Source: a virus
Taxonomy: Duplodnaviria > Caudoviricetes
Direction: 5' to 3' (one strand)
IMG/VR virus record: IMGVR_UViG_3300016472_000180
Location: 1,525 to 65,524 of that record
Length of the DNA: 64,000 nt
In this document: piece by piece, positions 26,920 to 33,453 of the stretch
Layout of the letters: the number at the start of each line of letters is the position of its first letter
Position numbering within the stretch: the first letter of the stretch is position 1
Made by a program: the position numbers and the translations under genes
Notes under the pieces: model-generated
What the model was told of the DNA's origin: nothing
The model's input: the letters and a program-made list of their open reading frames with translations, nothing else
The model's database searches: none

Positions 26920-26993
26920 GGATATCCAGCAGGATTCGAACCTGCACTGAACGGTATTGTCTACCCGCCTCTACCATTTGGGCTATGGATACC
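26920..26993 (-). ncRNA. tRNA-like element with collapsed anticodon loop
   Basis: Acceptor stem GTATCCA/TGGATAT, D arm TAGCCCAAATGGTAGAGGC and T arm GCAGG-TTCGAAT-CCTGC are intact; anticodon arm is GGTA-GACAA-TACC. Confidence 0.7.
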
Positions 26994-31403: not shown

Positions 31404-31832
31404 TTAGTTTGTTTCATACAACTTTAGGAAAGATTCCTTTAGGGAACATGGCACAGATGGATCGTCAATCTCCCACTCTAAAGACTCAAGGGGTGAGGTA
31501 GAATCCCACATTCCAATGAAACCAATACCAGCTTCGGCATATTCCAACATGATATTCCCATCATACATATTTGCTAGGGAATCAAAGAAAGAAATAGGTG
31601 GACTCCATGCCGTAAGAAACTGTAAGGTAACAATATCCCCATCCTTGGAGATATCTATATCTTCGCAGGATACATCCCACTTTGTGTTCCACTTGTTACA
31701 ATGATCTTCTATAGAATCTTCTGCGGGAACATATTTAGAGAAAAACTCTCCATTACCAAGAGAAACATATTCATAAATCTCTTTGGCGATTTCACCAGAC
31801 AATGTAACTTTATTCATGCACCAGTTTGGCAT
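31404..31832 (-). CDS. DUF1281/YubB-like ferredoxin-fold protein
   Basis: MPNWCMN, WNTKWD, FLTAWSPP, YAEAG. Confidence 0.8.
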   Translation of the reverse strand: MPNWCMNKVTLSGEIAKEIYEYVSLGNGEFFSKYVPAEDSIEDHCNKWNTKWDVSCEDIDISKDGDIVTLQFLTAWSPPISFFDSLANMYDGNIMLEYAEAGIGFIGMWDSTSPLESLEWEIDDPSVPCSLKESFLKLYETN

Positions 31833-32104
31833 TAGATACTCCGAAAGATTTTTCCAAGATATGCAGAAACCATTCCTGCAAGGGCAAACAATAGACCAAG
31901 ACTGATCCAAGCGGCGGGTGGCATTACACCTTTATCATGATCATACAATCCCCACAGTGCAACAATAATCATACCAATAATAAAGACAAGACAAATAATA
32001 TCCCAGCCCACCCACCTGTTTGTATTAGACCTGAAATAAATCGCAATCGATGCACCACAAGCGATACACCAAGTAAACATAGCAATACCAAGAATCCAAG
32101 CCAT
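31832..32104 (-). CDS. Three-TM membrane protein
   Basis: Three hydrophobic segments; GGAGA RBS. Confidence 0.65.
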   Translation of the reverse strand: MAWILGIAMFTWCIACGASIAIYFRSNTNRWVGWDIICLVFIIGMIIVALWGLYDHDKGVMPPAAWISLGLLFALAGMVSAYLGKIFRSI

Positions 32105-32131
32105 ATGTTATCTCCATTATGATTCCTAACA

Positions 32132-32156
32132 ATACATATCCACCATGGATATGCAT
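32132..32156 (-). promoter_or_regulatory. ATGGT-loop hairpin, copy D
   Basis: ATGCATATCC-ATGGT-GGATATGTAT upstream of RBS. Confidence 0.75.
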
Positions 32157-32159
32157 GAA

Positions 32160-32530
32160 AGAAACAAGTACCCCTGTGCATACCCGTCGATATACACAGG
32201 ACGCACTATGCTTATTACTCTGTTTATACTCGCATAGTCGAGTAATCATCTTTCATATCAGGATATATTATCAGTAAGGTAAAGACAATCATAAAAACCT
32301 TATCAGCCATTTGTCCCCTAAATGGTCATACCATAGTGGAAGGACTATAAACCCACTACTACACCCTTGCGGGGCGTTTATTATTTAGGTTTGCATCGCC
32401 TAAACAATATCCTATTGCGGCTTACCGTTGCAACGGATCCGCCATAAAGATTGGATTGAAAGAAATACTAGGGATTTCTCCCTAGTATTCCATGGTGTGG
32501 TGTTTATAGATAACACCTAACTATCTTACG
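32160..32530 (-). ncRNA. Candidate structured non-coding RNA
   Basis: No credible ORF; consecutive stem-loops and two interleaved 7-bp helices. Confidence 0.5.
32458..32489 (-). terminator. Terminator-like hairpin, GAAA loop
   Basis: AATACTAGGGA-GAAA-TCCCTAGTATT + TCTTTC. Confidence 0.65.
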
Positions 32531-32539
32531 GAGATAAGA

Positions 32540-32725
32540 TTATTCCTCGAAATACTGGGACGATGGCAAGTTCAATGCCTTGTTGATAGCAATAACATTG
32601 TCTTCCACAGTCAACACCGCAGCGGTCAACGCTTGCCGCAGTTCAGCCACTTCAGACTTGAGATTATTCAGTTGTGTTTGTGTTGCATACAACATCTTTG
32701 CCAGTTCTTCCATACTGTTATTCAT
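32540..32725 (-). CDS. Small coiled-coil protein
   Basis: GGAGA RBS; 61 aa. Confidence 0.65.
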   Translation of the reverse strand: MNNSMEELAKMLYATQTQLNNLKSEVAELRQALTAAVLTVEDNVIAINKALNLPSSQYFEE

Positions 32726-32752
32726 TGTTTTTTCTCCATAAAAAACTCTGAA

Positions 32753-33100
32753 CTACATACTCACCATGAATATGTAAACTTCCAAACCAAGGTCTTGTGC
32801 TAGGGTAATCATGGACTTTGTTCCCCTAGATTGTCCATCCCAAATGGCGATAAGTGCATCGGCATTTTCCGCCATTTGTTTATTGCGGATATACCCTGCA
32901 CTCTTGCCATAAGTAGCCCATTGTGCAGGGTATGAATGGACTGGGATACCATTAGCAATAGACCATTGTTTGCCAAGTGTATCCACCCCACGCGCTTCAC
33001 CGCAAACAGTAGCGGTAATCTCAAATTTCGATTCCAGTATTGCAGACTCAACAATACTAGGGTCAACAATATCCCTAGATCCTGCAATGATTGTTCTCAT
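32753..33100 (-). CDS. SLOG family protein (YspA/DUF2493-like)
   Basis: MRTIIAGSR, VCGEARGVD, AGYIRNKQM, IAIWDGQSRGTKSMI. Confidence 0.88.
   Translation of the reverse strand: MRTIIAGSRDIVDPSIVESAILESKFEITATVCGEARGVDTLGKQWSIANGIPVHSYPAQWATYGKSAGYIRNKQMAENADALIAIWDGQSRGTKSMITLAQDLGLEVYIFMVSM
32754..32776 (-). promoter_or_regulatory. ATGGT-loop hairpin, copy C
   Basis: TACATATTC-ATGGT-GAGTATGTA then GTTCAGAG. Confidence 0.75.
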
Positions 33101-33129
33101 TCTGTTATCTCCATAAAGAACTCTGAACC

Positions 33130-33154
33130 ATACATACCCACCATAGGTATGTAT
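33130..33154 (-). promoter_or_regulatory. ATGGT-loop hairpin, copy B
   Basis: ATACATACCT-ATGGT-GGGTATGTAT then GGTTCAGAG. Confidence 0.75.
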
Positions 33155-33155
33155 T

Positions 33156-33187
33156 GAAAAGAATACTGGGGATTTCTCCCCAATATT
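33156..33187 (-). terminator. Terminator-like hairpin, GAAA loop
   Basis: AATATTGGGGA-GAAA-TCCCCAGTATT + CTTTTC. Confidence 0.65.
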
Positions 33188-33195
33188 CCAATGTG

Positions 33196-33453
33196 TTATC
33201 GGCAAGGTGTGCCGCATGGATAATACCCATGCAACTTGCCATAGGCTTCCCATGATTCTGCGAAAGCCATTGCTTCATCATAGGTCAATCCATCTTCATC
33301 CCGACCATCTTCAACTTCAATCCACATTTCACGCTCATTTTCTTCCGCAAGTTCCTCTTGCAGTTCCATTTGTTCAGCCACAGACAACTCCTCTGCGATC
33401 AACTCACAAAACCAACCAACATCAAACTCATTTGAAGAATCATACTCTTTCAT
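33196..33453 (-). CDS. Highly acidic early protein (85 aa)
   Basis: 25 D/E versus 5 K/R by hand count; GGAGA RBS. Confidence 0.7.
   Translation of the reverse strand: MKEYDSSNEFDVGWFCELIAEELSVAEQMELQEELAEENEREMWIEVEDGRDEDGLTYDEAMAFAESWEAYGKLHGYYPCGTPCR

Follow-up and report, generated by a model that had tools for sequence, protein, structure and literature searches.

The window analysed here is a stretch of 64,000 nt (positions 1,525 to 65,524 of the IMG/VR record IMGVR_UViG_3300016472_000180) taken from a complete 65.5-kb IMG/VR genome of a member of the Caudoviricetes. Its genes lie on the minus strand throughout. They code, among others, for a T7-type RNA polymerase, a T7-type primase-helicase, DNA polymerase A, a portal and a terminase, which places the phage in the T7 supergroup. 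A scan of the whole window against Rfam returned two tRNAs and one Pistol ribozyme. The two tRNAs are clear (44-57 bits in Rfam); a further tRNA-like gene, located at 26920-26992 on the minus strand and called tRNA-Ile with the anticodon AAT by ARAGORN, scored only 34 bits.

The Pistol match falls into a gene-free spacer of 435 nt (32539-32105, minus strand), which lies amid small early genes, 2 kb past the gene of a virion protein of 4311 aa and 9 kb ahead of that of the polymerase. The spacer begins after the stop codon of a 61-aa ORF, ends at the start codon of a 90-aa ORF (Table 1) and contains no credible reading frame of its own: the frames overlapping it are only 30-74 aa long and are not conserved. 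A sequence-only reading made earlier had noted an ORF-free region of about 370 nt here, and this is borne out. It had also called the rest of the genome tightly packed, which is roughly right, a few other gaps of 200-500 nt being present. Gene order upstream of the spacer is common to the related loci L153, L163 and L166, and gene order downstream to L124, L141, L159 and L111. When the small proteins on either side, the SLOG-domain protein and the C-terminal part of the giant protein were used to look for close relatives in IMG/VR, the matches were all distant or unrelated and none had a pistol; the spacer itself had no match among GenBank phages.

Two other features of this part of the genome were recorded. 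The stop codon of the SLOG/YAcAr gene falls inside an AUGGU-loop hairpin. Directly after the giant gene there is a non-coding stretch (34486-34060, minus strand) in which a repeat of the TTAGGT / AACCTAAGG type occurs several times at approximately 34480-34340 and a very GC-rich run of low complexity follows 3' of it at about 34260-34140; this stretch may be the true genome end or an early promoter region.

Table 1. Coordinates of the genes and RNA features at and around the spacer (w/, paired with).
Feature	Position	Strand	Remarks
T7-type RNA polymerase	23223-20746	minus	Pfam RNA_pol, 296 bits; ~27% identity to cultured phages
SLOG/YAcAr-domain early gene	32753-33253	minus	PHROG 'GTP-binding domain'; two genes upstream of cassette
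Upstream 61-aa ORF	32540-32725	minus	stop at 32540; no family
GGUGUU/AACACC hairpin	32499-32517	minus	within 20-nt sequence-conserved motif
13-bp GAAA-loop hairpin with U-rich tail	32462-32491	minus	-19.6 kcal/mol; covarying twin 33189-33160
9-nt direct repeat TTTCTTTCA, left copy	32457-32465	minus	bounds 301-nt insert
Orphan structured RNA module H1-H4	32333-32442	minus	~110 nt (about 110-135); homologues and compensatory changes
Module H1	32442-32417	minus	outer stem, internal loop, inner hairpin
Module junction AAUAGGAU	32416-32409	minus	eight nucleotides, invariant
Module H2	32408-32380	minus
Module H3	32377-32361	minus	GNRA loop
Module H4	32359-32333	minus
Candidate module pseudoknot	32413-32409 w/ H4 loop 32345-32341	minus	five pairs
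Fifth hairpin	32307-32325	minus	6-bp stem, 7-nt loop; alignments
Linker, predicted H-type pseudoknot	32246-32302	minus	read by eye
Linker helix a	32302-32297 w/ 32280-32275	minus
Linker helix b	32288-32281 w/ 32253-32246	minus	ends 2 nt before pistol P1
Pistol self-cleaving ribozyme (predicted)	32166-32243	minus	RF02679, 46 bits; clade model R2, 97.7 bits
Pistol P1	32243-32239 w/ 32232-32228	minus	5 bp
Pistol pseudoknot	loop 32238-32233 w/ 32210-32205	minus	6 bp
Pistol linker	32227-32223	minus	AUAAA
Pistol P2	32220-32217 w/ 32169-32166	minus	4 pairs, GAGU/ACUU
Purine-32 equivalent	A32212	minus
G33-C41 pair equivalent	32211/32203	minus
G40 equivalent	G32204	minus
G42 equivalent	G32202	minus
Pistol P3	32201-32189 w/ 32184-32172, loop 32188-32185	minus	13 bp; opens with U32201-G32172
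Predicted scissile GU junction	32170-32171	minus	cut G32171 / U32170
9-nt direct repeat TTTCTTTCA, right copy	32156-32164	minus	directly after pistol
10-bp AUGGU-loop hairpin	32132-32156	minus	standard early-gene leader element
Downstream 90-aa ORF	31832-32104	minus	hydrophobic, no family; ATG at 32104, GGAG ribosome site

AUGGU-loop hairpins are found on the minus strand at 33507-33483, 33154-33130, 32777-32753 and 32156-32132; their loop is invariant, their stems covary, and each of the four is followed by a short conserved leader, a GGAG site and an ATG. AUGG(U) was also seen at the 3' edge of the module described below and in its 5' flank, and could hint at a binding factor shared by the hairpins and the module. 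The strongest hairpin of the spacer, absent from the helices listed in the sequence-only reading, is the 13-bp GAAA-loop stem. Hairpins with GAAA or GAAACA loops are frequent around the pistols of relatives (L074, L119, L120, L124, L141), and the one in the spacer may be a terminator-like or a 3'-end protecting structure. In the paralogous spacer at 33215-33096, which has the ordinary form, the GAAA hairpin is directly followed by the AUGGU hairpin. The spacer studied here has the same arrangement plus an insert of 301 nt between the two copies of the 9-nt repeat.

The remaining leader hairpin, GGUGUU/AACACC, belongs to a 20-nt motif which in relatives immediately precedes the module (L159, L163) or a pistol (L100, L164, L166). 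An SP6-like general phage promoter was considered for this motif and ruled out, as it occurs once in 64 kb with up to three mismatches allowed. A sigma-70 promoter in the spacer is likewise unsupported, promoter-like sites being fewer than in shuffled sequences.

The Pistol match covers 32243-32170 on the minus strand and positions 1-68 of the RF02679 model, its 46 bits standing against a gathering score of 34.5. The sequence-only reading had recognised no known ribozyme core and had offered the H-type pseudoknot as part of a novel RNA; the pseudoknot is indeed supported, but it belongs to this known class. Several of the helices listed by eye thereby find their place. ACTATGC/GCATAGT is the pistol pseudoknot that joins the loop of P1 to the junction, the 12-bp hairpin is P3 (13 bp when the U-G closing pair is counted), and TACTCG/CGAGTA, taken for the alternative hairpin of a switch, is P1 itself, which is also the helix picked by the minimum-energy fold. 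All eleven helices exist where they were read, and ten are backed by relatives: H1-H5 of the module, the linker hairpin, P1, the pseudoknot and P3 of the pistol, and the 5' GGTGTT/AACACC. The exception is ATTACTC/GAGTAAT, a helix in competition with P1 and P2. In L119, L150, L159 and L163 the strand used by P2 varies and the 5' strand of this helix stays as it is; the two do not covary, and a switch thus lacks comparative support.

With a clade model, R2, 63 distinct phage pistols were aligned. In this alignment 95% of the cells are paired, compared with 31-49% when the partners are slid, and double changes occur at every pair of the pseudoknot, P2 and P3 but one. The pseudoknot is 98% paired with five of its six pairs compensated; all 13 pairs of P3 covary, and its U-G pair is present in 59 of the 63. 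P2 is the weakest helix family-wide (77% paired). The active-site residues known from the structural literature, i.e., G40, G42, purine-32 and the G33-C41 pair (PMC6154101), have their equivalents in the window, as does the AUAAA linker, and the columns for G33, G40, C41, G42 and purine-32 (A or G) are invariant in 62-63 of the 63 sequences. Judged by its sequence, the pistol is complete and is a canonical member of RF02679. The phage's early block was searched for further pistols, permuted ones included, and none was found; this is the only pistol in the genome. As a ribozyme it is unremarkable: its class is well known and widespread in phages, and the strict pistol pattern alone has more than 120 sites in IMG/VR.

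A pistol-like copy of a different kind was seen in L100 (11474-11567) and also in L068 and L056. It has an insertion before P2 and an A at the positions of both G40 and G42, is the only one of the 63 without the catalytic guanines, and in L100 lies 1.3 kb from a canonical upstream pistol. This copy may be inactive or a variant.

The position of the cut depends on the register of P2, which was compared across 28 distinct loci from viruses and metagenomes that share P1 and the pseudoknot with the window. The 3' strand of P2 had been left unaligned by cmscan; realigned, it gives four pairs out of four and a GU junction. The one extra nucleotide of the window, by which cmscan was misled and which 19 of the 63 natural pistols have as well, lies after P2, between it and the pseudoknot strand, and not before it. 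L119 has the same P2 with a GA junction, and different but compensated P2 sequences are found in L159, L120, L129 and L163, that of L159 being fully compensated; model R2 gives this register too. A register shifted by one, with a GG junction, was ruled out, as L119 has an A in the second position yet a canonical P2. Across the family the junction leading from P3 to P2 reads GU in 49 of the 63 sequences and GA in another 8. Since a junction of exactly two nucleotides is a feature of the pistol class (PMC4604425) and the register is fixed by the relatives, self-cleavage, in this class an internal phosphoester transfer, is predicted to fall between G32171 and U32170.

In L124, L120 and L141 about 170 nt directly after the pistol (12090-11930 in L124) are conserved and include a long hairpin. 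This stretch is absent from the window and is possibly another structured RNA.

Upstream of the pistol lies a second structured RNA. A blastn comparison of the spacer with pistol-bearing loci gave a match of 277 nt and 75% identity in L124, spanning the upstream hairpins, and more copies of this four-hairpin module were found in L141, L153 (same contig as L124), L159 and L163. The core covariance model R1 scores L124/L153, L141, L159 and L163 at 116-146 bits and a distant copy in L050 at 28.6 bits. Weaker matches in L128/L031 (12 bits) and in L168 (16.5 bits, with many mismatches) were judged to be due to chance. The module is thus carried by five other lineages of related uncultured phages of 62-69 kb, beside the same pistol. 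In the six-sequence alignment 97% of the cells are paired against 34-48% in slid alignments, 18 of the 36 pairs change on both sides, and none of 500 shuffles reaches these values; the alignment behind these counts was itself fitted to the model and represents five or six lineages only, two of which are nearly identical. The five pairs between the invariant junction and the H4 loop can form in five sequences and vary on one side only, and this pseudoknot therefore stays a candidate.

No match with E of 1 or below to any family of Rfam 15 was found over 31900-32800, and over 32230-32560 there were only two chance-level ones (E 7-9). The homologous loci gave no Rfam match at gathering scores either. 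The module core pattern was found in IMG/VR only in L124 and L141, and a set of 185,579 prokaryote genomes had no copy. As an RNA motif the module is undescribed, narrow in distribution and in no Rfam family. The earlier proposal of a structured non-coding RNA on the minus strand is therefore borne out, with its novelty confined to these 110-135 nt and the pistol part being known; covariation in homologous phages, named then as a check, speaks for the module.

The fold energy distinguishes the two parts of the spacer. The whole stretch folds better than shuffled sequences on both strands (z of -5.4 on the minus and -3.3 on the plus strand), as does the pistol alone (z of -5.4), but for the module with the linker (32452-32244) z is only -0.78 and 44 of 200 shuffles fold as well. 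The strong value for the whole region stems from P3 and the GAAA-loop hairpin. The module thus owes its support to covariation and not to energy, and the energy check proposed along with the earlier reading is passed by the region as a whole but not by its candidate novel part.

The plus-strand z value would also be in keeping with hairpins that act at the level of DNA or transcription, as terminators, promoter hairpins or a replication signal, the pistol match being incidental. U-rich tails follow both the GAAA hairpin and P3, whose stems are worth about -19 kcal/mol each, and a loose scan passed P3 as terminator-like. The U runs are short and interrupted, and the GAAA hairpin, its run being short, was not accepted by the terminator scan. 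We consider this explanation highly improbable. The pistol scores above a curated cut-off, has an intact catalytic core and covaries throughout its family, promoter-like sites are depleted as described above, and many of the pairs in the module are of the G-U type on the minus strand and could not form on the plus strand; the module therefore fits an RNA of the minus strand only.

The relation of the spacer to its paralogue, with the 301 nt bounded by a direct repeat, invites another explanation, namely that the cassette is a selfish or tolerated insertion which recombines among phage early regions and merely cuts the transcript. The module is patchy among close relatives: in four complete or nearly complete ones (G001-G004, 62-69 kb) the same pistol is present and the module is nowhere found. 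The modules of L124 and L141 are 98% identical and have different upstream flanks, which also would suit an exchangeable element. Compensatory changes across lineages, on the other hand, indicate selection on the fold, and the cassette occupies a syntenic place in several relatives. It has neither terminal inverted repeats nor a mobility gene, and the 9-nt repeat is here simply the U-rich tail that comes after stable hairpins. On balance, we find an insertion of this kind unlikely.

Between the module and the pistol, the fifth hairpin is shared with L124 and L141 only and is replaced by a different sequence in L159 and L163. The linker pseudoknot, read by eye, recurs in L124/L141 and again in L159/L163 with topology and position unchanged and with unrelated sequence, and one of its helices appears also in the RNAalifold consensus. 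RNAalifold further proposes a long-range stem closing the module, which conflicts with the linker pseudoknot.

In L050 the order of the two RNAs is reversed, the 3' end of the pistol abutting the 5' flank of the module. This locus (identical to L167; 1273-576, minus strand, in a 67-kb phage) presents a string of RNA genes: pistol, module, a manA-like match and a tRNA. The manA-like match scores 26.8 bits and is below its cut-off of 55.2.

A compact fold in which several hairpins, one of them with a GNRA loop, are combined with an invariant junction and possibly a pseudoknot could be that of a cis-acting sensor, similar to a riboswitch or an aptazyme, which controls folding and cutting of the pistol or translation of the downstream gene. 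Such a role would suit the location of the module directly 5' of the ribozyme in five lineages, joined to it by a pseudoknot that ends at P1, and the 7-bp alternative helix of the window could compete with P1 and P2. The evidence from relatives points the other way: this helix is unconserved, the module of L050 comes after the pistol, complete relatives have the same pistol without it, and the genes downstream of the module differ among the carrier phages. A sensor is therefore quite unlikely in our opinion. As the module can flank either side of the cut and can also be absent, it looks like a separate RNA whose end is defined by the ribozyme, and is probably not a part of the latter.

We favour a reading in which the spacer is an RNA cassette among the early genes that precede the RNA polymerase gene in an uncultured phage of the T7 supergroup, and in which the early transcript would be processed by its own pistol, setting one end of a small accessory RNA; we would give it a probability of about 0.6. 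In the 5' to 3' direction of the minus strand the elements follow in the order of two leader hairpins, the four-hairpin module, the fifth hairpin, the small pseudoknot and the pistol. A long early transcript made by the host would run through the spacer, and the pistol would fold and cut itself between G32171 and U32170 while synthesis goes on. The upstream product would then consist of the module with the ribozyme attached, and its 3' terminus, closely following the 13-bp P3 hairpin, would be a 2',3'-cyclic phosphate. Downstream of the cut, the mRNA of the 90-aa gene would start with a 5'-OH at U32170, 14 nt before the AUGGU-loop hairpin and 66 nt before the ATG, and would thus have this hairpin at its 5' end. 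The cut would do the job of the RNase III sites of T7 early mRNA without host enzymes, and would set one end of the module as a separate accessory small RNA rather than a part of the ribozyme. The GAAA hairpin with its U-rich tail could terminate transcription, in which case the cassette would need its own promoter, and none was found. The sequence shows that the ribozyme is complete; transcription of the cassette, its cutting, stable products and any action of the module in trans are inferred.

More tentatively, the module may represent a new functional class of phage RNA, for example one that binds a ligand or a protein or serves as an anti-defence decoy, produced early in infection and with its ends cut by a pistol on either side. 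We hold this to be possible though doubtful. If true, it would give the pistol a concrete job, the maturation of a small RNA. No biological role of pistol ribozymes has been established in any organism (PMC4604425). Here a complete pistol is tied to a defined neighbour, a conserved RNA which precedes the ribozyme in five lineages and in a sixth comes immediately behind it, and this arrangement makes the trimming of a small RNA from an early transcript directly testable.

In T7 early mRNA, RNase III sites are structured intercistronic elements of the host-transcribed early block. The cassette shares with them the T7 supergroup, the intercistronic structure, the place in such an early block and the stable hairpin that the cut would leave at the upstream 3' end. 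It differs in that the cut is predicted to be made by the RNA itself and to leave a 2',3'-cyclic phosphate and a 5'-OH.

The pistol class is represented by RF02679 and the env25 structure 5K7C and has been described by Harris et al. (2015; PMC4604425) and reviewed (PMC6154101). The ribozyme of the window has in common with it P1 with a 6-nt loop, the 6-bp pseudoknot between loop and junction, the AUAAA linker, the 4-bp P2, the U-G-closed P3, the two-nucleotide GU junction, the equivalents of G40, G42, purine-32 and G33-C41, and the intergenic setting in a phage. Its peculiarities are the extra nucleotide between P2 and the pseudoknot, found in 19 of 63 relatives too, a long P3 of 13 bp and the fusion to a conserved upstream RNA domain.

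Ribozymes of other classes have been reported from similar surroundings. Prophage genes can be flanked by ribozymes thought to process long transcripts, and in a haloviral genome a hammerhead is found 13 nt ahead of the start codon of an early gene and matches a mapped 5' end (Perreault et al., 2011; PMC3088659). The cassette resembles these cases in its location between small phage genes of the same strand, in the short distance to an early start codon and in the presumed processing of a polycistronic transcript. The window differs from them in the class of the ribozyme, in having a single copy and not an array, and in the structured non-ribozyme RNA that accompanies it. Theta (HDV-like) ribozymes beside phage tRNAs were proposed to mature the tRNA ends (PMC10879173), and there too the cut is so placed as to set where a neighbouring structured non-coding RNA ends. 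In the window the ribozyme is of a different class and its neighbour is not a tRNA; among the phages with the module, the ribozyme follows the RNA in five lineages and precedes it in one. The module itself can be compared with conserved multi-hairpin orphan RNAs such as the drum, skipping-rope and DUF3800 motifs (Weinberg et al., 2017; PMC5737381), some of the orphan motifs of that study having been found near ribozymes or phage genes. It has no sequence or structure match to any such motif through Rfam and adds one undescribed motif to the orphan RNAs of phages, the pairing of pistol and module in either order being the notable point.
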